From Pyrodictium abyssi (GTDB lineage Archaea; Thermoproteota; Thermoprotei_A; Sulfolobales; Pyrodictiaceae), in NCBI RefSeq assembly GCF_036323395.1, contig NZ_AP028907.1, forward strand, positions 2,070,001 to 2,102,000: a stretch of DNA of 32,000 nt, read 5' to 3'. The position numbers and the translations under genes are program-made. Below, one piece after another: positions 2,336 through 22,045 of the stretch (position 1 is the first letter of the stretch; each line of letters opens with the position of its first letter). Under the pieces are notes generated by a model. The model was not told the DNA's origin, did no database searches, and worked only from the letters and a program-made list of their open reading frames with translations.

Positions 2336-3561
2336 GCAAGCCCCTCCTCATGTACAACATAACGCGCGTCCTCGCCGCCGCAGCGGCGGCCTCTGCCGCG
2401 TACCCTGCATACAGCATCATAGCCGGCTACGTCGGGGGCTACCTCTACAACGTGGCGGGCCCTGGTCTGGCCGTGGCTGCTGTAGCCCGGTCGCTGCACG
2501 TGGTAGGCGTGCTCGTGACCACAGCCCTCGTGATGCTGGGCCGCGTATACGTAGCCTACACGCTCCTCGGCATCGCGACGGGAGTAGCGGGGCTCGCAGG
2601 GCTAGAGCCCTGGAGCGTCGCCGCCCCAGCTATAGCCTCGAGCACCCTGTACACCCTCTCCCTACGCTACGAGATAGCCTCGACAGGCTACGCTAGACAC
2701 CGGGTCATGTGCAGCAGGCAATGCACAGTAGTCACAGCCGCCTCTCTCCTGGCCAGCTATACCGTTCTAGCAGCCTCGGTGTTCTACGGATCGCTGCTCG
2801 TGTCGAGCCTCTACGAGCTCCTGCTCGAGCCTCCCGCCGGGCTGCCAGAGCCACTAGCAGATGTATGGAGCAAGGCACAACAGATGCTCGTAGTGAGGCT
2901 ACTAGTGTTGGCCGTGGTGGCCTATGCGTTCTACTACGCCGCGGCGAGGATAACCGGCCCACTAGTCTACGCGCTCACAGCAAGCCCCGAGGAGCTAGCC
3001 AAGAACACACAGCAGCTACTCGAGGCAGAGGCCCGCGAGGTCCTAGAGATGAAGAAGTGGTACCACCGGATGCTGCGCTCGAGTCTAGCCCTAGTAGGCA
3101 CTATACCAGCAGCCGTGACAGGCTACATAGCCGTGGAGGCAGTGTCGGCGGTAGCCAGAAATGGGCTGGTGGGGGGCACACCCTGGTGGGTAGACCTCCT
3201 AGCACGCATACTGCTGGTTTCCTCGGCCTCCACGCTAAGCTACCTGGCGGCCCGCCGCCTACTAGAGTCGATGGCGTTCGCGAGGATACGCTGGAGAAAC
3301 CTCGCCATAGCCTCAGCAGTCGGGCTCACAGCCTGGATGCTGCTATACATAGTAATACTTGTGGCCCACGGCGCGCAGTCCGGCGACGCGCTCCGCATAT
3401 TCCTGGAGAACAGCCTAAGGATAGCACGCGGCGACGAACCCCTGGTAAGCGACAATACGCAGCTACTGGAAGCCGTGGATAGGCTGGAGAAGCTCCTAGG
3501 CGAGGGCCTCCAACAGGCCGAGTACATACTAAGGTTCCTAGTCAAGCTGCTCTGGGGGTGA
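2332..3561 (+). CDS. polytopic membrane protein, no recognisable family
   Basis: 409-aa ORF with about 8 hydrophobic segments and a central and a C-terminal amphipathic/charged helix region. Its TTG start overlaps the DUF58 stop by 4 nt (TTGA), implying translational coupling. Confidence 0.7.
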   Translation: MSKPLLMYNITRVLAAAAAASAAYPAYSIIAGYVGGYLYNVAGPGLAVAAVARSLHVVGVLVTTALVMLGRVYVAYTLLGIATGVAGLAGLEPWSVAAPAIASSTLYTLSLRYEIASTGYARHRVMCSRQCTVVTAASLLASYTVLAASVFYGSLLVSSLYELLLEPPAGLPEPLADVWSKAQQMLVVRLLVLAVVAYAFYYAAARITGPLVYALTASPEELAKNTQQLLEAEAREVLEMKKWYHRMLRSSLALVGTIPAAVTGYIAVEAVSAVARNGLVGGTPWWVDLLARILLVSSASTLSYLAARRLLESMAFARIRWRNLAIASAVGLTAWMLLYIVILVAHGAQSGDALRIFLENSLRIARGDEPLVSDNTQLLEAVDRLEKLLGEGLQQAEYILRFLVKLLWG

Positions 3562-10254: not shown

Positions 10255-11208
10255 TCACCCTCCTATGTAGGCTTCTATCACGCGTGGGTCGTTGGCCACC
10301 TTGTGCGGCGGCCCCTCGGCTATGACGCGGCCAGAGTCCATGACAACCACGTTGTCGCAGAGATCCATCACAACCTCTAGGTCGTGCTCCACGAGCACGA
10401 AGGAGATGCCTCGGGTCTCGTTGACCTCCACTATGGCGCGCGCTAGGTCCTCCTTCTCCTCCCTGCTGAGGCCCGCCATAGGCTCGTCCATCAGCACTAC
10501 CTTCGGGTCCTGGGCGAGCGCTCTCGCCAGGTCTACGCGCTTCTGCACACCGGGAGGCAGGCCCTCGACAATCTGGTCCCGGTACTCGTGGAGCTCGAGG
10601 AGGTCGATAGCCCTCTCAGCCTTCTCCCTCGCCCACTCCTCCCAGCGCTGGGCCCGGCGGGTCCAGAACGCGGCGTCTACTATGCTGTAGCGCCTCCACG
10701 GCTCGAGGCCCGTCATGATGTTCTCGGCTACCGTCATGTGCTTGAATAGCTCGCTGTGCTGGAAGGTCCTGGCTAGCCCTAGCTTGGCCCTCGCGTGGGG
10801 CGGGAGCCGGGTGATATCCCTGCCCTCGAACACTACTCTACCGCTCTTCGGCTTGTAGAACCCGGAGACTACGTTCAGGAGGCTGGTCTTGCCCGCCCCG
10901 TTGGGGCCTATTACGGCGAGAATCTCGCCGGGGCGTAGCCTAAAGCCCGCGTTGTCTACGGCTACTATGCCGCCGAACTCTACCCTTATGCCCTCTACTT
11001 CGAGGATGTATTCCAGCTTCCCGTGGGGCTTCTCTCTGTAGGTGCTGCTTTCCTCCCAGAGCGCTCTGTAATCGAACCTGCTCACCTCTATGCGGGGCGC
11101 GTTAGCTGCGAAGAACAAAACGCACCATCTCGCACACCTCCTGGAGTGGTCTTCAGTGTTCCCGGTAGCCCACCACTGTTCGCTACTCTTATTTAAACAC
11201 TCGCCCAA
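10255..11208 (-). CDS. livG: LIV-type ABC transporter ATP-binding protein (LivG-like); start uncertain
   Basis: Walker A GPNGAGKTS, signature-like LPPGVQKRVDLARAL, Walker B VVLMDEP and the C-terminal DPRVIEAYIGG motif typical of LivG. There is no in-frame ATG upstream of the ABC domain. TTG 11208 lies in the AT-rich promoter region, so a later start (for example GTG 11085) is more likely. Confidence 0.88.
   Translation of the reverse strand: MGECLNKSSEQWWATGNTEDHSRRCARWCVLFFAANAPRIEVSRFDYRALWEESSTYREKPHGKLEYILEVEGIRVEFGGIVAVDNAGFRLRPGEILAVIGPNGAGKTSLLNVVSGFYKPKSGRVVFEGRDITRLPPHARAKLGLARTFQHSELFKHMTVAENIMTGLEPWRRYSIVDAAFWTRRAQRWEEWAREKAERAIDLLELHEYRDQIVEGLPPGVQKRVDLARALAQDPKVVLMDEPMAGLSREEKEDLARAIVEVNETRGISFVLVEHDLEVVMDLCDNVVVMDSGRVIAEGPPHKVANDPRVIEAYIGG
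11102..11128 (-). other. SD-led 8-codon mini-ORF (MVRFVLRS) in the liv operon leader
   Basis: GGAGGTG (11135-11141), a 6-nt spacer and ATG 11128, with stop TAA at 11102-11104. It is out of frame with livG and ends 17 nt upstream of the candidate livG GTG 11085. Confidence 0.35.
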
Positions 11209-16217: not shown

Positions 16218-17345
16218 CTACTGGATGAACTTCGCCACGGCCCGGGCATAATCCATTGTAGAGAGGCCTCCGCCCAGGTCCGGGGTCGTGAAGCCAGCTG
16301 CGAGCGCCTGCTCCACGGCCAGCTCCATCCTCGAGGCTGCCTCGCGGTAGCCCAGGTACTCGAGCATCATAGCCGCGGAGAGGATCATTGCAGTCGGGTT
16401 GGCCACCCCCTTCCCAGCGATATCCCATGCAGCGCCGTGCACCGGCTCGAAGAGCGCCTTCCCATCGCCTATGTTCGCCGAAGGGGCTAGCCCGAGGCCC
16501 CCAGCAACCTGGGCCGCTAGGTCGCTGAGAATATCACCGTACTGGTTCATGGTGAGCACTACGTCGAAGCGCGAGGGGTTGCGGACCATCTCCATCGCGG
16601 CAGCGTCGACATACATCTCGTCAACGGCTACACCCTCCTCCTCTAGGACACGGCGCGCCACGTCCCGGAACAAGCCGTCGGCGACCCGCAGCACGTTAGC
16701 CTTATGGACTATGGTCACGCGGCCTGAGCGGGAGGAGGCGTAGCGTGCAGCTACGCGTGCCACCCGCCGGGTACCCTCCTCCGTCACCACCTTCACGGCG
16801 AACGCGGCGCCGGGCACACTGAACTCTATACCCGCGTAGACGTCCTCCAGGTTCTCCCGCACTATCACCAGGTCTATCGGCGCGACGCTCACGACCCCGG
16901 GGAGGCTGCGGGCCGGACGAATGTTAGCGTAGACGCCTAGCTCCCTCCTCAGCACCACAACAACGTCCCGCGCGGTCTCGCCGACCGGGCCCTTGAGCAC
17001 AACGTCAGCCCAGTTCTTAGCTAGGCGCAGCGTCTCGCTTGGCAAGGGCTCGCCGTACTTGCGGGCAGCAGTATCCCCTGCCTCGGCGTAACGTATCTCA
17101 AGGTCTATCCCGTACATGTCTAGAGTCTTCTCGAGCACGTACATAGCGGCATCTGTTACCTCGGGGCCTATACCGTCACCTGGTATGACTAGCACCCGCG
17201 GAACCGCCAAGGGATCCCACACCACCGCTACACAGCTATTCCGTGGACTCCGGTCGTGCCCCAAGCCCCTGATGCGGAGCCAGGGGCCATGGCATAGGCA
17301 TGCGAGGCGGATGCCCCTAGCTACAGCCTTAGGTGGTACAGCCAT
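16218..17345 (-). CDS. leuB: 3-isopropylmalate dehydrogenase (or homoisocitrate dehydrogenase); N-terminus probably shorter
   Basis: VLVIPGDGIGPEV, NQYGDILSDLAA and GLAPSANIG are typical of the beta-decarboxylating dehydrogenase family. Homology begins about 50 codons after the track ATG 17345, which has no SD. Candidate starts are GTG 17225/17222, TTG 17210 and GTG 17195. Confidence 0.88.
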   Translation of the reverse strand: MAVPPKAVARGIRLACLCHGPWLRIRGLGHDRSPRNSCVAVVWDPLAVPRVLVIPGDGIGPEVTDAAMYVLEKTLDMYGIDLEIRYAEAGDTAARKYGEPLPSETLRLAKNWADVVLKGPVGETARDVVVVLRRELGVYANIRPARSLPGVVSVAPIDLVIVRENLEDVYAGIEFSVPGAAFAVKVVTEEGTRRVARVAARYASSRSGRVTIVHKANVLRVADGLFRDVARRVLEEEGVAVDEMYVDAAAMEMVRNPSRFDVVLTMNQYGDILSDLAAQVAGGLGLAPSANIGDGKALFEPVHGAAWDIAGKGVANPTAMILSAAMMLEYLGYREAASRMELAVEQALAAGFTTPDLGGGLSTMDYARAVAKFIQ

Positions 17346-17434: not shown

Positions 17435-18580
17435 CTAGACTGGCCTTGGATAAGGCGTCTCAGCACGTCGCTCCATGTACTCGTTTATCCAGCGGACTAT
17501 TATGTCCTCGCTGACCTTCTTCATCCTCGGCGCGTTCTCCTTCAGCCTGTCCAGGATGTACTTCACGAGCGCTGGCTCCGGGGTCACGCCGATGCTCTGG
17601 AGAGCCCATTCGACCGCGGCGCGGCCGCTGTGGCGCCCCAGGACTATCCGCCGACGGTTGCCTACAGCCTCGGGCGGCAACGGCTCGTACGTTGCAGGGT
17701 TCTTCAGCACACCGTGCACGTGTATACCAGCCTCGTGGGCGAACGCGTTACGCCCCACAATCGCCTTGTTAGGAGGCGTCTCTACACCGAACTTGCTCGC
17801 CACTAGCCGCGACACGGGCGTTAGCAGCTCCATTCGGATGCCAGTGCTGCGGTCCATGAGGTAGTGTAACGCAGCCACGACCTCCTCTAGCGCGGCGTTG
17901 CCAGCTCTCTCGCCGAACCCGTTCACAGTGACCTGGACGCCGTCTGCCCCCGCCCTAACGCCGGCCAACGTATTAGCAGTAGCCATGCCGAAGTCGTCAT
18001 GGCAGTGTACGTCTATCCAGACCCAGGACGGGAGACTCCTCCTTATGAGGCCCACAAGCCACTCCATATACCAGGGGGTCGCGGTGCCCACGGTGTCCGG
18101 TATGTTTATGTAGCTAGCACCAGCCTCGACAACGCTCCGGTATATCCTAACGAGGAACCCAGGGTCGCTCCTCGTCGCGTCCTCGGCCGAGAATAGGACG
18201 GTAGCGCCGTAGCTCCGCGCCCGCTCGACCGCCTCGACAGCCCGTTCCACCACCTGGTCCCGTGTCATCCTCAGCTTGTACTTCATGTGCACGTCGCTGG
18301 TGGCTATGAACACGTGGATTATGTGTGCTTCAGCCGCTGCCGCCTCGTCCACGTCGCGTGGATGGGCCCTGGCAAGGGCGGCGATCCTGGCTCTAGAGGC
18401 CTCCCTGACAGCTGCTCTCACGGCTCTACGGTCTATCTCGGAGGAGGCGGGGAACCCAGCCTCTATCACGTCGACGCCAAGCTCGTCGAGGGCTCGTAGA
18501 ATCTCTATCTTGTCGTAGAAGTCTAGCTCTATTCCAGGCATCTGGTCTCCGTCACGGAGGGTTGTATCGAAGACCCTTAT
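17435..18580 (-). CDS. leuA: 2-isopropylmalate synthase-family enzyme (IPMS/homocitrate/citramalate synthase), short form; non-canonical start
   Basis: HCHDDFGMATANTLAG, the FIATSDVH region and EAGIHVHG identify the DRE-TIM family. The track start ATG 18541 would remove the in-frame upstream IRVFDTTLRDGDQ. The frame is open back to TGA 18611-18613 with no ATG/GTG/TTG, so I extend it to the ATA codon at 18580-18578 (see findings). Confidence 0.8.
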   Translation of the reverse strand: MRVFDTTLRDGDQMPGIELDFYDKIEILRALDELGVDVIEAGFPASSEIDRRAVRAAVREASRARIAALARAHPRDVDEAAAAEAHIIHVFIATSDVHMKYKLRMTRDQVVERAVEAVERARSYGATVLFSAEDATRSDPGFLVRIYRSVVEAGASYINIPDTVGTATPWYMEWLVGLIRRSLPSWVWIDVHCHDDFGMATANTLAGVRAGADGVQVTVNGFGERAGNAALEEVVAALHYLMDRSTGIRMELLTPVSRLVASKFGVETPPNKAIVGRNAFAHEAGIHVHGVLKNPATYEPLPPEAVGNRRRIVLGRHSGRAAVEWALQSIGVTPEPALVKYILDRLKENAPRMKKVSEDIIVRWINEYMERRAETPYPRPV

Positions 18581-18604
18581 GCGAGTTCCATTTTCGACTG
18601 CACC
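18581..18604 (-). promoter_or_regulatory. 24-nt leader cassette, leuA copy (GGTGCAGTCGAAAATGGAACTCGC on the minus strand)
   Basis: It is the exact reverse complement of plus-strand 18857-18880. It is extended 5' to a full GGAGGTG (18601-18607) and contains ATG 18591-18589, which opens MELA-stop (18591..18577). Confidence 0.6.
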
Positions 18605-18670
18605 TCCGTCTCATGCCCGATGGAGTTCCGGCTTCTTGGCTGGGCCGGGGACACCGGGTGCCCACAACCG

Positions 18671-18724
18671 TCTATTTAAGCGTTGCCTTCCGCATTTTGG
18701 AGTTATACGGAAAACGTTTTAATA
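18671..18724. promoter_or_regulatory. candidate divergent TATA boxes for leuA (CTTAAATAGA on minus, 18671-18680) and ilvB (TTTTAATA, 18717-18724)
   Basis: These are the only AT-rich boxes in the 310-nt leuA-ilvB spacer. The assignment is positional only. Confidence 0.35.
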
Positions 18725-18800
18725 GGGGAAGCCGGTGGGCAGGCCTACCCGACGCCCTTCTAGGCCGCTAGGCGGCTCCGCCAGACCGGAGGTGGTCTCG

Positions 18801-18821
18801 ATGTCAAACGTCCCCATGTAG
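18801..18821 (+). other. SD-led mini-ORF 1 in the ilvB leader (MSNVPM)
   Basis: GGAGGTG at 18788-18794, a 6-nt spacer, ATG 18801 and stop TAG at 18819-18821. Confidence 0.4.
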
Positions 18822-18836
18822 CTGGAGGTGGTCCAG

Positions 18837-18854
18837 ATGTCAAACATTATGTGA
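18837..18854 (+). other. SD-led mini-ORF 2 in the ilvB leader (MSNIM)
   Basis: GGAGGTG at 18824-18830, a 6-nt spacer and ATG 18837. The stop TGA 18852-18854 overlaps the in-frame GTG 18851 of the ilvB ORF. Confidence 0.4.
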
Positions 18855-20629
18855 GGGGTGCAGTCGAAAATGGAACTCGCGTGGTAGACCACATAGCCCG
18901 TGTTCTAAAAGACCTGGGCGCCACCCAGGTCTTCGGGGTAACCGGCGGCAGCATAATGGGGCTCTTCGACGCGCTAGCGCTCGAGGACTTCGAGATCTAC
19001 ATGTTCCGCCATGAGCAGGGAGCGGCGCACGCAGCCGACGCCTACGGCAGGATAGCCCGCAGGCCGGGAATAGCACTAGCAACAAGCGGCCCAGGCGCCA
19101 CGAACCTTGTAACCGGCATAGCTAACGCCTACTTCGACTCCGCGCCCATGCTGGCTATCACCGGGCAGGTACCGACAAGCGTCTTCGGCCGCGACGCCTT
19201 CCAGGAGACAGACATCGTGGGCGTAACGGCGCCGATAACCAAGTTCGCCTACCAGGTGAAGAGGCCAGAAGAAGCCGGCCCGGCCATAAGAACGGCGTAC
19301 AGGCTCGCGGTCGAGGGGAGGCCTGGCCCCACTCTCATCGACCTACCCAGAGACGTGCAGCTAGTACGCTACGAGCCAGTGGACGAGCCCGAGTATCTCC
19401 CAATAGACTTCGCCAAGTATCAGCCGCCGAAGCCCGACCCGGAGGCTGTTGCTAGCGCTGCACGCCTACTACTCGCGGCGGCAAGGCCCGTAATCCTGGT
19501 CGGTGCTGGTGTATACTGGTCCGGGGCTACAGCCGAGGTCATAGAGCTCGCTGAGCGGCTACAGGCGCCCATAGTGACAACACTCCCCGGCAAGAATGCT
19601 GTCCCTGCAGACCACCCCCTAGTGCTAGGCCCAGCTGGGATGCACGGCCGTGCAGAAGCGGACGCTGCTCTCGCTAACGCCGACGTAGTGCTCGCTGTAG
19701 GCACTAGGTTCTCCGACCGTACCGTTGGCAGGTTTGGGCCAGAGCTACGCGAGAAGAAGATAATCCACATAGACATCGACCCCAGTGAGCACGGCAAGAA
19801 CGTGCCACCAGCTGTGAGCATTGTGGCTGATGCGCGGGAGGCGCTCCAGGCAATACTCCGCGAGATGAAGGTGGTGCCTAAGCGCGACGGGAGGTTCATC
19901 GAGTGGCTGCTCTGGATACGCCGCCGCTACGAGGACGCTATGGAGAAGCTAGCGGCCCGGATGAGGAAGTTCGCGCCCTGGAAGGTGTTGAAGACGCTCA
20001 GGCAGGCAGTGCCGCGCAATACGATAACCGTCACTGGTGTGGGCAGCCACCAGATGTGGTCAGAGATACACTGGGACGTATACGTGCCCGGCACCTGGGT
20101 GACGAGCGCAGGCCTAGGCACGATGGGGTTCTGTGTCCCGGCAGCGCTCGGCGCCAAGATAGCTGCGAGGGACCGCCCAGTACTCTGCATCGATGGCGAC
20201 GGGAGCTTCCAGATGACTATGAATAACCTGGCCCTCGTGAGGGACTACGACCTACCCATAATAGTGACAGTATTCGACAACCGTGCGCTCATGCTGGTAA
20301 AGCAGTGGCAGATATTCCTCTACGACCGGAGGATAGTAGCTACCGAGTACAGCAAGTGGCCCGACTTCACGAAGATAGCTGAGGCCTACGGGATAGAGGC
20401 GATACGCCCAGCAAGCCTAGAGGAGATCAACGCAGCAGTACGCCGCGCTATCCGGAACAATGAGCCCCTCATAGTAGTGGTGGACATAGACAACAACGAG
20501 GACATAGTGCTGCCATGGGTGAAGCCCGGCGACTGGCTGACAGACGCGATACTGCCGCCCGGGATGGAGGATGTCAGCCTCGTTTTCCGCGAGGAGAAGC
20601 TAACAGCTGCCCCCGCAGCTGGGAGGTGA
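18851..20629 (+). CDS. ilvB: acetolactate synthase (acetohydroxyacid synthase) large subunit
   Basis: ThDP-enzyme motifs: VFGVTGGS, HEQGAAHAADAYGR and IDGDGSFQMTMNNLA. Family N-termini align from about GTG 18881 (VDHIARVLKDLG...). Whether GTG 18851 or GTG 18881 is used is unresolved. Confidence 0.9.
   Translation: MRGAVENGTRVVDHIARVLKDLGATQVFGVTGGSIMGLFDALALEDFEIYMFRHEQGAAHAADAYGRIARRPGIALATSGPGATNLVTGIANAYFDSAPMLAITGQVPTSVFGRDAFQETDIVGVTAPITKFAYQVKRPEEAGPAIRTAYRLAVEGRPGPTLIDLPRDVQLVRYEPVDEPEYLPIDFAKYQPPKPDPEAVASAARLLLAAARPVILVGAGVYWSGATAEVIELAERLQAPIVTTLPGKNAVPADHPLVLGPAGMHGRAEADAALANADVVLAVGTRFSDRTVGRFGPELREKKIIHIDIDPSEHGKNVPPAVSIVADAREALQAILREMKVVPKRDGRFIEWLLWIRRRYEDAMEKLAARMRKFAPWKVLKTLRQAVPRNTITVTGVGSHQMWSEIHWDVYVPGTWVTSAGLGTMGFCVPAALGAKIAARDRPVLCIDGDGSFQMTMNNLALVRDYDLPIIVTVFDNRALMLVKQWQIFLYDRRIVATEYSKWPDFTKIAEAYGIEAIRPASLEEINAAVRRAIRNNEPLIVVVDIDNNEDIVLPWVKPGDWLTDAILPPGMEDVSLVFREEKLTAAPAAGR
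18857..18880 (+). promoter_or_regulatory. 24-nt leader cassette, ilvB copy (GGTGCAGTCGAAAATGGAACTCGC)
   Basis: It is the perfect inverted-repeat partner of 18581-18604. It contains ATG 18870, which opens MELAW-stop (18870..18887), and it ends directly before GTG 18881. Confidence 0.6.
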
Positions 20630-20890: not shown

Positions 20891-20930
20891 GCCCCCGGGG
20901 CTGGGTGGCGCCGCGCCCCTTCCCCGGGGC
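20891..20930 (+). terminator. GC-rich inverted repeat followed by a T-rich run after ilvN
   Basis: GCCCCCGGGG...CCCCGGGGC arms are followed by CACTACTTTCTTG. This is weak, because archaeal termination usually needs longer T tracts. Confidence 0.25.
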
Positions 20931-21061
20931 CACTACTTTCTTGAGTGCAAGGCCTCTCTCCCCACAAACCTACAGCTATATGGATACTTATACCATATGT
21001 CTATGGTATTGTGAGTCGAGGTGGGAAGCCTCGGATACGAGGAGTCGGGGGTGGAGACACC

Positions 21062-22045
21062 GTGGCGAGGATATACACAGACCAGGATGCTAGCCTAGAT
21101 CCGCTCCGTGACAAGACCATAGCGGTAATAGGCTACGGTAGCCAGGGCCGTGCCCAGGCCCTCAACCTCCGCGATAGCGGGCTAGACGTCATAATAGGGC
21201 TTAGGCCGGGGAAGAGCTGGGAGCTCGCCGAGAAAGAGGGGTTCAAGGTATACCGGGTGGACGAGGCGGTCAAACGGGCGGACGTAGTAATGATGCTCAT
21301 ACCCGACATGGTCCAGCCCGAGGTCTGGAAGAACCAGGTGGAGCCACACCTACGCGAGGGCATGACGGTGGACTTCGCCCACGGCTTCACGGTGCACTAC
21401 GGCCTAATCAAGCCGCCCGAGTACGTGGACGTCGTCATGGTGGCGCCTAAGAGCCCTGGCGCTAAGGTCCGTGAGGAGTTTGTCGCGGGCCGCGGCGTAC
21501 CAGCCCTCGTAGCAGTATACCAGGACTATACCAGCCGTGCCCTGGAGACCGCTCTCGCCATAGCTAAGGGCATTGGGGCGACGCGGGCGGGCGTCATAGA
21601 GACCACTTTCAAGGAGGAGACAGAGACGGACCTCATAGGCGAACAGACGGTGCTCGTCGGCGGGCTCATGGAGCTGATAAAGAAGGGCTTCGAGACACTC
21701 GTGGAGCTGGGCTACCAGCCCGAGGTAGCGTACTTCGAGGTACTCAACGAGGCCAAGCTGATAATGGACCTCATATGGAGGTACGGTATCACGGGCATGC
21801 TGGAAAGGGTCTCCGTCACGGCTCGCTACGGCGGCCTGACAGTAGGGCCGAAGATCATAGACGACAGGGTCAAGGAGAACATGAAGAAGGCTGCTGAGCG
21901 GGTACGCAGCGGCGAGTTCGCCAAGGAGTGGGTGGAGGAGTACAGGAAGGGGATGCCGAGGCTTCAGAAGCTCCTCGAGGAGACGCGGAGCCACGAGATA
22001 GAGCGCGTGGGCAAGGAGATGCGCCGCCTCCTCTTCGGTGGCTAG
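21062..22045 (+). CDS. ilvC: ketol-acid reductoisomerase (class I)
   Basis: [36 protein letters not shown] matches the class I KARI N-terminus and Rossmann motif. GTG 21062 is preceded by GGGGGTGGAG. The track ATG 20945 adds 39 non-homologous codons that cover the AT-rich promoter region 20973-21012. Confidence 0.92.

Follow-up and report, generated by a model that had tools for sequence, protein, structure and literature searches.

A conserved leader mini-ORF before a start-less leuA gene of Pyrodictium abyssi suggests a leucine-responsive frameshift

To our knowledge, little is understood of how archaea match the synthesis of amino acids to supply, and leader-peptide control has not been established in them. 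In bacteria, attenuation of the leu, ilvBN and ilvGMEDA operons relies on short leader ORFs that contain codons for the end products, together with alternative terminator and antiterminator hairpins and a U tract. The bacterial RF2 gene prfB is expressed through a +1 shift: a short upstream frame ends just past the shift site at a stop codon, slow decoding of that codon in the A site allows the P-site tRNA to slip, the pathway product (the release factor) relieves the slowness, and a Shine-Dalgarno element stands at a fixed distance of 3 nt upstream. The −1 shifts of Escherichia coli dnaX and Saccharolobus solfataricus fucA1 use two-tRNA slippery heptamers, the former with an internal Shine-Dalgarno element about 10-11 nt 5' of the slippery site. 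We know of no amino-acid-sensing role for either. A 2021 review (PMC8211752) counts fucA1 as the sole −1 programmed frameshift then reported from an archaeon. Leftward frameshifting at “hungry” codons, in which a single P-site tRNA slips, has been seen in reporter constructs in starved E. coli (Gallant and Lindsley), and of functional trans-frame products arising in this way a 2016 review states that “no examples are known” (PMC5009743). Initiation without a frameshift offers two further precedents, namely conserved non-AUG starts, as at the AUU of infC, which has its own ribosome-binding site, and termination-reinitiation coupling at 4-nt NTGA overlaps, demonstrated in an archaeon (Huber et al. 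2019, PMC6728339; review PMC12548453).

The window analyzed here is a stretch of 32,000 nucleotides of the P. abyssi genome (contig NZ_AP028907.1, positions 2,070,001 to 2,102,000), whose relevant features are collected in Table 1. The minus-strand leuA gene ends at the stop codon 17437-17435, and the first canonical start codon in its frame is ATG 18541-18539 (MPGIELDF...). The 13 codons 5' of this ATG encode I-R-V-F-D-T-T-L-R-D-G-D-Q, and the frame is closed upstream by TGA 18613-18611, with no ATG, GTG or TTG among the 11 codons from there to AGG. Re-reading of the frame bears out the first-pass annotation, which had reported that leuA has no canonical start 5' of DTTLRDGDQ and that this essential motif lies upstream of the first ATG. 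The conserved family motif D-T-T-L-R-D-G-[DE]-Q, which includes a substrate-binding Arg and a metal-binding Asp, lies in frame at 18568-18542, 5' of the sole canonical start, and its presence in the LeuA protein depends on an initiation or recoding event.

Table 1. Positions of the leuA and ilvB leader elements in the window.
Feature	Position	Strand	Remarks
TATA-like box (CTTAAATA) of the leuA-leuB-leuC unit	18673..18680	−	TTAAATA/TTTAAA kept in window, L083, L086, L081
Shine-Dalgarno GGAGGTG	18601..18607	−	9 nt 5' of mini-ORF ATG, 12 nt 5' of GAA codon
24-nt cassette GGTGCAGTCGAAAATGGAACTCGC, leuA copy	18581..18604	−	exact repeat
leuA mini-ORF ATG GAA CTC GCA TAA (MELA, stop)	18577..18591	−	+1 frame relative to leuA; stop overlaps ATA
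Candidate −1 shift site G GAA CUC	18583..18589	−	putative, from comparison; P-site GAA would re-pair on GGA with Leu CUC in A site
leuA-frame ATA codon	18578..18580	−	overlapped by mini-ORF stop (ATAA); ATA or GTA in orthologues
leuA	17435..18580	−	short-form 2-isopropylmalate/homocitrate synthase family enzyme, 381 codons from ATA
TATA-like box (TTTTAATA, inside conserved GTTTTAATAGGGG) of the divergent ilvB-ilvN unit	18717..18724	+	kept in window, L083, L081, L086
ilvB mini-ORF 1 ATG TCA AAC GTC CCC ATG TAG (MSNVPM, stop)	18801..18821	+	in window, L083, L081
ilvB mini-ORF 2 ATG TCA AAC ATT ATG TGA (MSNIM, stop)	18837..18854	+	A AAC AUU, Ile codon
ilvB mini-ORF 3 ATG GAA CTC GCG TGG TAG (MELAW, stop)	18870..18887	+	within and beyond second cassette copy; overlaps GTG 18881
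ilvB (acetolactate synthase large subunit)	18881..20629	+	canonical GTG where leuA has ATA

The predicted protein has an HMGL-like TIM-barrel (PF00682, 1.5e-87) followed by an HCS_D2 post-barrel domain (PF22617, 2.2e-26), which places it in the LeuA/homocitrate/citramalate synthase (DRE-TIM metallolyase) family, and it matches the 2-isopropylmalate synthase (IPMS) structure PDB 3RMJ at 6.7e-87; a domain search found no LeuA_dimer domain. Its best NCBIfam matches are IPMS models, all under their curated cut-offs (for IPMS_Sufob, 448 bits vs 600), and the codon ATA 18580-18578 aligns to position 1 of both IPMS_Sufob and TIGR02090. The gene context, leuA-leuB-leuC adjoining ilvB, ilvN, ilvC, ilvD and leuD, supports assignment as an IPMS.

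Lack of a canonical start is unusual, being found in just 10 of 178 fetched leuA-family loci, to which the window adds a further case. Nine of the ten belong to crenarchaeal lineages (three of the four fetched Thermoproteales lineages, and two relatives within the Pyrodictiaceae), and the tenth to the Nitrososphaeraceae (L010). The loci of close relatives were fetched protein by protein; scans of genome and metagenome contigs that used LeuA, as a single protein or as an alignment, picked up mainly generic motifs (HEAGIHVH, HCHDDFGM), matched mostly distant Nitrososphaeria, euryarchaea and bacteria, and served as a background set only. The leader arrangement itself is present in other Pyrodictiaceae, including Pyrodictium occultum, in other Desulfurococcales, in the Thermoproteales (Pyrobaculum and Thermoproteus) and in other Thermoproteota.

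This distribution bears on the explanation that sequencing or assembly has obscured a true ATG, or that the gene is dying while another paralogue supplies the activity. Nothing but the missing start codon itself speaks for either possibility, both of which the first-pass annotation had entertained. The ATA context is identical in three independent metagenome assemblies of one relative (L083, L084 and L085; 96% LeuA identity), and the same architecture recurs in the complete genomes of Pyrobaculum aerophilum, P. arsenaticum and Thermoproteus tenax, in read-based assemblies with the P. occultum protein, and in many metagenome-assembled genomes. Further, the reading frame is intact, and purifying selection is strong both on the 13 codons that precede the first ATG and elsewhere in leuA; in the leuA codons downstream of the mini-ORF core, the encoded amino acids are unchanged although 17 of 20 third positions vary. 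Error is refuted by the independent assemblies and decay by the selection on the frame, and we give this explanation almost no weight.

Alignment of orthologous 5' regions showed that ATA is not the conserved element; the conserved feature is a mini-ORF. Its consensus is ATG, GTG or TTG followed by GAA CTC GCN TAA, led by a Shine-Dalgarno sequence. The start codon differs by lineage (with CTG in L174, where an in-frame GTG lies upstream), the stop is kept in every lineage while alternating among TAA, TAG and TGA, and a 1-nt indel is accepted solely in the spacer that separates the start codon from the Shine-Dalgarno sequence. This switching among start codons and among stop codons suggests that the mini-ORF is translated, as it appears to be. 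The core TGGAACTCG (mini-ORF nucleotides 2-10) is invariant in eight lineages, which, combined with the variable third positions of the following leuA codons, is the pattern expected if both frames are read; both frames look constrained.

The placement of signals in the leader bears on where ribosomes enter. The leuA TATA-like box predicts a transcription start near 18645-18650, and with it a 5' leader in which about 40 nt precede the Shine-Dalgarno sequence. The latter stands 20 nt from the ATA codon, and its spacing suits the mini-ORF ATG instead. The window has GGAGGTG-N6-ATG at three further sites, all of them at the 5' end of a long ORF or close to it. In four Thermoproteales lineages, the TATA box ends 19-20 nt 5' of the mini-ORF ATG, which implies leaderless mRNAs that start at the mini-ORF AUG; a Shine-Dalgarno sequence is absent from these leaders, and in them the AUG is probably the sole entry point.

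These observations sit poorly with direct initiation, in which ribosomes would start at ATA, ATT or ATC, or at a GTG before Phe, and the cassette would be an untranslated protein- or RNA-binding site of leuA and ilvB. RefSeq does place ATA or ATT starts in P. aerophilum, P. arsenaticum and T. tenax (P0064, P0069, P0059); L055 has AGGTG, 5 nt and then ATT; GTG directly precedes TTC in the leuA genes of L081, L179 and L180; the cassette is common to the two genes and co-varies within genomes; and some Pyrobaculum ilvB calls, beginning at an in-frame ATG or GTG 5' of the cassette, put the cassette in the enzyme frame. Against this, the window's Shine-Dalgarno sequence is too far from ATA and fits the mini-ORF ATG, the inferred leaderless mRNAs of the Thermoproteales offer the mini-ORF AUG only, L174 reads GTA AGG GTC with no ATH or NTG codon adjoining the motif, and the switching of mini-ORF starts and stops argues for translation of the supposed binding site, at which we found no dyad symmetry, covarying structure or Rfam family. 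The overlapped codon is ATA in the window, L083-L085, L086, L179, L180 and Pyrobaculum, and GTA in L081, L088, L174, L002 and L181; GTA is also the would-be restart codon in L006 and L009. The arrangement shares with infC the lack of ATG, GTG or TTG and, in some lineages, a near-cognate codon at the expected N-terminus; it differs from infC in that no one near-cognate start is conserved, ATA alternating with GTA (and CTA appearing in ilvB), and in that no Shine-Dalgarno sequence of its own is correctly spaced. Initiation at ATA, as the first-pass annotation had suggested, is therefore weakened by the GTA of L081, L088 and L174 while keeping the RefSeq starts of Pyrobaculum and Thermoproteus in its favor, and we consider direct initiation improbable.

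Termination-reinitiation, the idea that the first-pass annotation preferred, is unlikely in our estimation but has more to commend it. The mini-ORF would be read, the peptide released at UAA, and the ribosome would restart at the ATAA overlap, an analogue of the common ATGA overlap, or at whichever usable codon is nearest. In every lineage the stop of the mini-ORF overlaps the putative first enzyme codon or directly adjoins it, and a GTG overlaps TGA in the leuA of L176. The NCBIfam models start at the overlapped codon, a LeuA Met at the ATA/GTA position would coincide with the RefSeq start of Pyrobaculum genes, and P0012 begins MRVFDTT. At ilvB, the equivalent position can hold a canonical GTG or ATG, in a classic NTGA or near-overlap layout. 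Compared with NTGA pairs (Huber et al. 2019, PMC6728339), the leuA leader has the same 4-nt overlap of stop and first codon, and ilvB copies use a true GTG or ATG; it differs in that the overlapped leuA codon is ATA or GTA instead of NTG, and in that the upstream ORF is a four-codon leader instead of a gene. A canonical downstream start is missing in leuA; for ilvB, the window has one (GTG), whereas L086 (GTA) and L174 (CTA) lack it.

The codon at the overlap counts against reinitiation. Restart would have to occur at GTA in the leuA genes of the seven loci listed above, and at CTA in the ilvB of L174. We know of no case in which GTA or CTA supports initiation. The first base varies so as to yield I, V or L, and with ATA, GTA and CTA found besides GTG and ATG the codon behaves as a sense codon. 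ATGA, which a single A-to-G change would create, was absent from the overlap in eight of eight Pyrodictiaceae and four of four Thermoproteales leuA leaders. Reinitiation leaves unexplained this avoidance, as well as a universal Leu codon, the fixed rare codons GAA and ATT, and the slip-prone context described below. It also has the wrong direction for a biosynthetic gene, since stalling at the Leu codon during starvation would cut LeuA synthesis.

A −1 shift out of the mini-ORF frame, which the first-pass annotation had listed among its explanations, gives the best fit to the comparative data; that annotation named no shift site or sensing role, and we add both here. In every lineage the enzyme is encoded in the −1 frame relative to the mini-ORF, and this frame stays open past the shift site in each of the 13 crenarchaeal lineages examined. 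This holds also for L006 and L009, in which the mini-ORF lies 65-71 nt 5' of the codon preceding R-[I/V]-F-D-T-T; the intervening stretches of these two loci differ mostly by changes synonymous in the leuA frame, and that of L009 has no ATG, GTG or TTG. Across lineages, the leuA mini-ORF encodes MELA, MELV, MASGLVQ, MESGLVL, MSSGLA, MGLPNLGV or LELE, each followed by a stop, and the sole residue common to all is Leu. By a rule that was framed after the data were seen, its codon is always preceded by one whose tRNA, in the P site, can re-pair at −1 (GAA after G, GGG after G, or AAC after A), with the shift-site equivalents G GGG CUC in the Thermoproteales and A AAC CUC in L176. Such a context surrounds just 11.7% of Leu, Ile and Val codons in the window's genes, where 6% of Glu codons are GAA and 3% of Ile codons are ATT; in the leaders, both of these codons are invariant. 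The spacing between the Shine-Dalgarno core GGTG and the slip codon is fixed in the Pyrodictiaceae, at 12 nt for 25 of 27 leader elements, which comprise three differently built mini-ORFs.

We therefore propose, tentatively but as a real possibility, that a −1 slip at a “hungry” Leu codon feeds ribosomes into leuA, making the leader a translational leucine sensor. Ribosomes would start on the four-codon mini-ORF AUG GAA CUC GCA UAA, with its strong Shine-Dalgarno sequence, as the sole route to leuA. With charged tRNA-Leu plentiful, CUC would be read fast and termination at UAA would follow, yielding little or no LeuA. Under scarcity of charged tRNA-Leu, the ribosome would pause with GAA in the P site, occupied by Met-Glu-tRNA, and CUC in an empty A site. 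The P-site tRNA could then slip one base back, from GAA to GGA, a step in which the Shine-Dalgarno duplex 12 nt upstream may assist. The Thr codon ACU would next occupy the A site, the leuA frame would be entered at 18589/18588, and the product would begin M-E-T-R-I-R-V-F-D-T-T-L-R-D-G-D-Q. The slip and its dependence on leucine are what we infer; the architecture and its conservation are read directly from the aligned loci.

Several features tell against such a slip. There is no classical X XXY YYZ heptamer at the leuA leader sites, and under P-site-only re-pairing at −1, G GGG is perfect, A AAC pairs at two of three positions and G GAA needs a G.U pair in the middle position, making it a weaker site than the classical ones. 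Among the Leu codons of the window's genes CUC is the most frequent (42%), and hence not obviously “hungry”. The mini-ORF stop always lies 1-3 codons past the sensor codon and overlaps the enzyme frame, which reinitiation predicts and a frameshift need not. Finally, a shift is unnecessary in loci with a canonical in-frame leuA start, namely L088 and L179 (GTG CAG CCG GAA CTT GGA ACT...), L174 (TTG), and L081, L179 and L180 (GTG directly before TTC), and the in-frame upstream ATG or GTG at which some Pyrobaculum IlvB calls begin likewise weighs against it.

The divergent ilvB gene, which encodes an enzyme common to all three branched-chain amino acids, has a related leader. The cassette GGTGCAGTCGAAAATGGAACTCGC occurs exactly twice in the window, at 18604-18581 on the minus strand and 18857-18880 on the plus strand (none in 100 shuffles), and the codon immediately after it is ATA in leuA and GTG 18881 in ilvB, so that the two codons share a position relative to the cassette, as the first-pass annotation had stated. 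In orthologues the position of GTG 18881 holds ATG (L081), GTA (L086) or CTA (L174). Three mini-ORFs precede or overlap ilvB. The first two have GGAGGTG upstream, at 18788-18794 and 18824-18830, respectively; mini-ORF 1 contains A AAC GUC, with a Val codon, and in mini-ORF 2 AAC ATT is kept in eight of eight lineages, while the start is ATG (TTG in L180) and the second codon varies (TCA, CCA or TTA) with its final A constant. Under the frameshift model these would act as Val, Ile and Leu sensors in the same frame, while the canonical GTG would allow basal expression; one Leu sensor for leuA, and Val, Ile and Leu sensors for ilvB, fits the logic of the pathway. Openness of the enzyme frame across the ilvB leader was uninformative as evidence for frameshifting, because the third frame is equally stop-free in this short G-rich stretch. 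For the Thermoproteales, ilvB was represented by protein calls only. The genes ilvC, ilvD and leuD come after ilvB-ilvN on the same strand, and a separate promoter-like stretch lies 5' of ilvC.

We also considered mechanisms based on RNA structure or on other kinds of recoding. No Rfam family matched at the leuA/ilvB leader, an eight-sequence leader alignment contained no compensatory pairs, covarying structure or conserved downstream structure, and no terminator-like hairpin with a U tract was found in 18500-18950. The cassette has one weak stem, GCAGU...ACU(C)GC, which showed no covariation. A T-box-like element (UGGA then CUC) was rejected on the grounds that the Thermoproteales cassette has no UGG and that tRNA-Leu would need UGGU. 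Transcriptional slippage lacks a conserved homopolymer run at the junction, slippage at the stop codon would require GCA, GCG, GTA or CAA to re-pair at −1, which they cannot, and for hopping a matching landing codon is absent.

The leader resembles bacterial attenuation in having short leader ORFs with end-product codons before genes of the same pathway, Leu alone for leuA and Val, Ile and Leu for the shared enzyme. It differs in that the hosts are archaea, there are no alternative terminator and antiterminator hairpins with a U tract, each mini-ORF carries one cognate codon and no run, and the main ORF, overlapped out of frame by the leader, has no start of its own. The logic of the proposed leucine switch would be that of RF2 autoregulation: as in prfB, a short upstream frame ends soon past the shift site, a slowly decoded A-site codon would let the P-site tRNA slip, the end product of the pathway would relieve the delay, and a Shine-Dalgarno element stands at a set distance upstream. 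Relative to prfB, the proposed leuA shift is −1 and not +1, would sense a Leu codon via charged tRNA and not a stop codon via a release factor, and has its Shine-Dalgarno sequence at 12 nt and not 3 nt; its upstream frame of 4-8 codons is itself an initiation site. The two-tRNA heptamers of dnaX and fucA1 set these apart from leuA, whose leader has no evident downstream structure. The mechanism proposed is that of hungry-codon, one-tRNA P-site slippage, and it would differ from the reporter cases in being a conserved programmed device.

The arrangement also affects annotation. Dozens of database entries begin at an internal Met past DGDQ (LeuA) or at MLGIPGG or MSLYDALY (IlvB), and leuA and ilvB are routinely truncated by gene callers in these lineages. 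The leuA of P. aerophilum has three different N-termini in RefSeq, GenBank and UniProt. The UniProt entry LEU1_PYRAE (P0063) joins both frames, which may reflect correction of a presumed sequencing frameshift.

A literature search, with most subscription journals outside its coverage, found no published description of this arrangement. The leader mini-ORF is deeply conserved and accompanies enzyme genes whose own start codons have been lost, and our comparison suggests a control mechanism not described before, in which leucine-short ribosomes slip from the mini-ORF into a start-less leuA behind it. If the frameshift reading is true, these leaders would provide natural starvation-triggered frameshifting, which was stated to be unknown (PMC5009743), and would add to the sole archaeal −1 programmed frameshift so far counted (PMC8211752). 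More broadly, and more tentatively still, the branched-chain genes of crenarchaea may be under amino-acid-sensing frameshifting, by −1 at leuA and ilvB and possibly by +1 at MRFLR-type leaders, which would be a first natural regulatory case of hungry-codon shifting and an archaeal counterpart of attenuation.

In the leuA frame, neither ATG, GTG nor TTG was found upstream of the first ATG, back to the TGA stop (see table), and exactly two copies of the 24-nt cassette are present, one ahead of leuA and one ahead of ilvB; on both checks, the start-less leuA and shared cassette described in the first-pass annotation proved accurate. The minus-strand leader reads GGAGGTG CAGTCGAAA ATG GAA CTC GCA TAA GGG TCT TCG..., in which ATG to TAA forms a mini-ORF, while the enzyme frame reads TGA GAC GGA GGT GCA GTC GAA AAT GGA ACT CGC ATA AGG GTC TTC GAT ACA ACC CTC CGT GAC GGA GAC CAG ATG. 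The product, with HMGL-like and HCS_D2 domains, belongs to the short-form isopropylmalate/homocitrate synthase family; NCBIfam IPMS models align position 1 at the ATA codon, and the closest solved structure (3RMJ) is an IPMS. By LeuA, the closest named organism is Pyrodictium occultum (84% identity). The gene heads a leuA-leuB-leuC unit divergent from ilvB-ilvN-ilvC-ilvD-leuD. The longest leuB ORF extends about 45-50 codons past its domain start, and that of ilvC about 40; an AT-rich promoter-like stretch accompanies a GC-rich palindrome between ilvN and ilvC.

Features of the leuA and ilvB leaders and of related sites
Feature	Locus	Position	Strand	Remark
leuA-frame TGA	window	18613-18611	-	
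leuA cassette	window	18604-18581	-	
leuA mini-ORF	window	18591-18577	-	MELA
ATA codon	window	18580-18578	-	overlapped by mini-ORF stop
First leuA-frame ATG	window	18541	-	
ilvB leader	window	18788-18887	+	
ilvB mini-ORF 1	window	18801-18821	+	MSNVPM; Shine-Dalgarno-led; distinctive codon Val
ilvB mini-ORF 2	window	18837-18854	+	MSNIM; Shine-Dalgarno-led; distinctive codon Ile
ilvB cassette	window	18857-18880	+	
ilvB mini-ORF 3	window	18870-18887	+	MELAW; Shine-Dalgarno-led; distinctive codon Leu
leuB longest ORF	window	16218-17345	-	true start likely near 17210 (330 aa in relatives)
ilvN-ilvC palindrome	window	~20893-20930		CCCCGGGG...CCCCGGGG
ilvC longest ORF	window	20945-22045	+	true start likely GTG ~21065
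liv leader mini-ORF	window	11102-11141	-	MVRFVLRS; closest in-frame canonical liv ATPase start GTG ~11085
leuA leader	L055	2960-3020		MRFLR
Start-less leuA	L010	~2980-3012		

Two of the explanations first offered, assembly error and gene decay, were contradicted by comparison with relatives. In a relative with 96% LeuA identity, three independent assemblies (L083-L085, from JGI and two ENA projects) all carry GGAGGTGCAGTCGAAAATGGAACTCGCATAAGG. Across eight Pyrodictiaceae lineages, 17 of 20 third codon positions downstream of the ATA codon vary with the amino acids kept, indicating that the 13 “start-less” codons are translated. An artefact or pseudogene is accordingly very improbable. Of 178 fetched family loci, 10 have no canonical start in frame ahead of the motif, nine of them from these crenarchaeal lineages; gene callers have cut many entries at an internal Met in Pyrodictiaceae, other Desulfurococcales and Thermoproteales, and a GenBank entry for Pyrobaculum aerophilum is titled “leuA with possible unusual start codon”. 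The start-less leuA is genuine and conserved, and current annotation does not explain it. The sole non-crenarchaeal start-less locus among the 178 (L010, a Nitrososphaeraceae MAG) has the frame P-C-I-A-E-R-I-R-I-F-D-T-T directly downstream of a TTTTTAAATA box; an x-I-A/V-x motif is common to many archaeal LeuA N-termini (MCIAP, MSIAP, LCIAT, MPIVAR).

The conserved unit consists of a Shine-Dalgarno sequence (GGAGGTG or GGGGTG), a spacer of 9-10 nt to which a 1-nt indel is confined, and a mini-ORF of ATG, GTG or TTG, then GAA CTC, GC[A/G] or GTA, and TAA. The three canonical starts alternate between lineages (one relative, L174, has CTG there, with an in-frame GTG upstream), and the stop is kept throughout. 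The ATA is not itself conserved, being GTA in P. occultum (L081) and two other relatives (L088, L174). GGAGGTG-N6-ATG occurs at three other window sites, in each case at the 5' end of a long ORF or close to it.

The design recurs in more distant lineages. Those of Thermoproteales read ATG NNN TCG GGG CTC GYN (NNN) TAA, encoding MASGLVQ (P. aerophilum, P. arsenaticum), MESGLVL (T. tenax) or MSSGLA (L002), and in four lineages 19-20 nt lie between the end of the TATA box and the downstream ATG, the geometry of leaderless archaeal mRNAs, so that initiation on the transcript is probably limited to the mini-ORF AUG. UniProt LEU1_PYRAE (MASGLVQIKIFDTT) is the mini-ORF fused to the enzyme frame through a -1 shift; RefSeq starts instead at ATA/ATT (MKIFDTT, MRIFDTT, MVKIFDTT). 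A Desulfurococcales MAG (L176) has (GTG) ATG GGT TTG CCA AAC CTC GGC GTG TGA. In two other Thermoproteota (L006, L009), 65-71 nt separate TTG GAA CTA GNG TAG from the downstream codon that precedes R-[I/V]-F-D-T-T; no stop interrupts the enzyme frame from the mini-ORF onward, the intervening stretches differ mainly synonymously in that frame, and that of L009 contains no canonical start. The Pyrolobus fumarii leuA leader (L172/L173) is degenerate (TTG TTG CGC GCA TAC GTG TGT TC), with TAC at the relatives' TAA position and GTG directly before TTC GAC; its annotated TTG start adjoins the TATA box.

Ahead of ilvB, three consecutive mini-ORFs share one frame, preserved across a 9-nt indel between them, and ilvB is their -1 frame. 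The first two form a 36-nt direct repeat (GGAGGTGGTCnnGATGTCAAAC...), and the window, L083 and L081 alone have the Val mini-ORF. AAC ATT is retained in the Ile mini-ORF across eight lineages, although ATT accounts for 3% of Ile codons here; the second codon is TCA, CCA or TTA with a constant final A. Seven of the eight lineages start this mini-ORF with ATG or TTG; in the other, a 200-kb metagenome contig (L179), that position is TCG, and the one in-frame start left is a GTG within the Shine-Dalgarno sequence. No model accounts for the L179 leader, where ilvB has 64 codons without in-frame ATG, GTG or TTG and the MELA cassette is absent; Shine-Dalgarno to AAC ATT spacing is still 12 nt. In P. 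fumarii the ilvB mini-ORF is MDLREVEW, G GAA GUA (a Val codon) replacing G GAA CUC. Cassette similarity is higher between leuA and ilvB of one genome than between genomes (both CGAAAATGG in the window, both TGGAGATGG in L086), which suggests gene conversion between inverted copies about 270 bp apart, or shared constraint.

At protein level, Thermoproteales IlvB calls (N-V-G-G-[S/N]-F-G-A-[R/H/Y]) would back-translate to the same TCGGGGCT[C/T] cassette, the +1-frame ATG apparently preserved via N-V, D-V and H-E pairs. Among IlvB entries P0132-P0138 and P0186-P0222, a large proportion of the crenarchaeal ones, together with some labelled Korarchaeota, are cut at an internal Met or Val (MLGIPGG, MGVIGGSIM, MSLYDALY). 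In RefSeq, Pyrobaculum IlvB begins after the conserved RVVDK; ilvB thus shares the start-codon problem across Thermoproteales.

LeuA-making ribosomes, to judge from these alignments, almost certainly begin on the mini-ORF. Of two ways on into the leuA frame, the less probable is that they terminate there and reinitiate at the overlapped codon: the RTAA geometry resembles ATGA and ilvB often has a true start at this position (GTG in the window, L083, L088 and L180; ATG in L081), but that start is lost elsewhere (GTA in L086, CTA in L174), where gene callers shorten ilvB, and initiation at GTA or CTA is not credible. Moreover, the first base of the overlapped codon varies like that of an I/V/L sense codon, the single-step change to ATGA is avoided in leuA, and stalling at Leu would lower LeuA synthesis under starvation. 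Direct non-canonical initiation, with the cassette as binding site, is more doubtful still; no conserved near-cognate start was found at leuA. Mechanisms beyond those considered take the remaining probability.

We tentatively favor, at a little short of an even chance, entry into the leuA frame by a -1 slip inside the mini-ORF. Of this option, already raised in the first-pass annotation, the frame relation, re-pairing context and spacing fit; the slip itself, like every decoding step, we infer from sequence comparison. Every leuA mini-ORF version has a Leu codon after a P-site codon able to re-pair one base back (G GAA CUC/CUA, G GGG CUC, A AAC CUC), with A AAC GUC, A AAC AUU and G GAA CUC (Pyrolobus G GAA GUA) as ilvB equivalents; such contexts occur at 11.7% of Leu/Ile/Val codons in window genes, by a rule framed after the data were seen. 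GAA is rare (6%) yet invariant in the leader; a GAG codon would bring in a tRNA unable to pair again on GGA. In 25 of 27 elements, 12 nt separate the end of the Shine-Dalgarno core from the slip codon, despite different mini-ORF builds (9+3, 6+6, or internal), a distance within the range reported for the stimulatory Shine-Dalgarno element of dnaX -1 frameshifting. Mini-ORF nucleotides 2-10 do not vary; in one frame or the other, each occupies codon position 1 or 2, the pattern that decoding of both frames would produce. The slip also makes regulatory sense: a starved Leu codon would provoke it and hence LeuA synthesis, and IlvB, a shared enzyme, would be under sensors for Val, Ile and Leu while usually retaining a canonical start that allows basal synthesis.

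Another candidate leader precedes the window's liv-type branched-chain amino-acid ABC transporter operon: a GGAGGTG-N6-led mini-ORF (ATG GTG CGT TTT GTT CTT CGC AGC TAA) in whose +1 frame the liv ATPase frame is open throughout, the closest canonical start adding a 30-residue extension. The leuA leader of an uncultured Desulfurococcales (L055; ATG CGT TTT CTT CGT TGA) resembles it, with LeuA in its open +1 frame; with Leu CUU in the A site, UUU-C would permit a slip of +1. L055 also has AGGTG, 5 nt, and ATT directly before R-I-F-D-T-T.

RF2 autoregulation and laboratory “hungry-codon” frameshifting follow similar logic, bacterial leader-peptide attenuation a similar gene set and choice of cognate codons, and NTGA coupling a similar overlap geometry, although leuA lacks a canonical restart codon; each system's defining feature is missing here in at least one respect. 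Terminator hairpins were not found at the leuA or ilvB leaders, nor a classical slippery heptamer at that of leuA. According to a 2016 recoding review, “no examples are known” of starvation-induced frameshifting giving functional trans-frame proteins (PMC5009743). For Archaea, just one programmed -1 frameshift is listed in a review from 2021 (PMC8211752), and no published description of the leuA leader was found in the literature searched. Even the conservative reading, in which start-less biosynthetic genes of an archaeon are obligatorily coupled to a leader mini-ORF, is absent from the searchable literature; on the most likely reading, the leuA leader would represent a new kind of amino-acid-sensing recoding switch.
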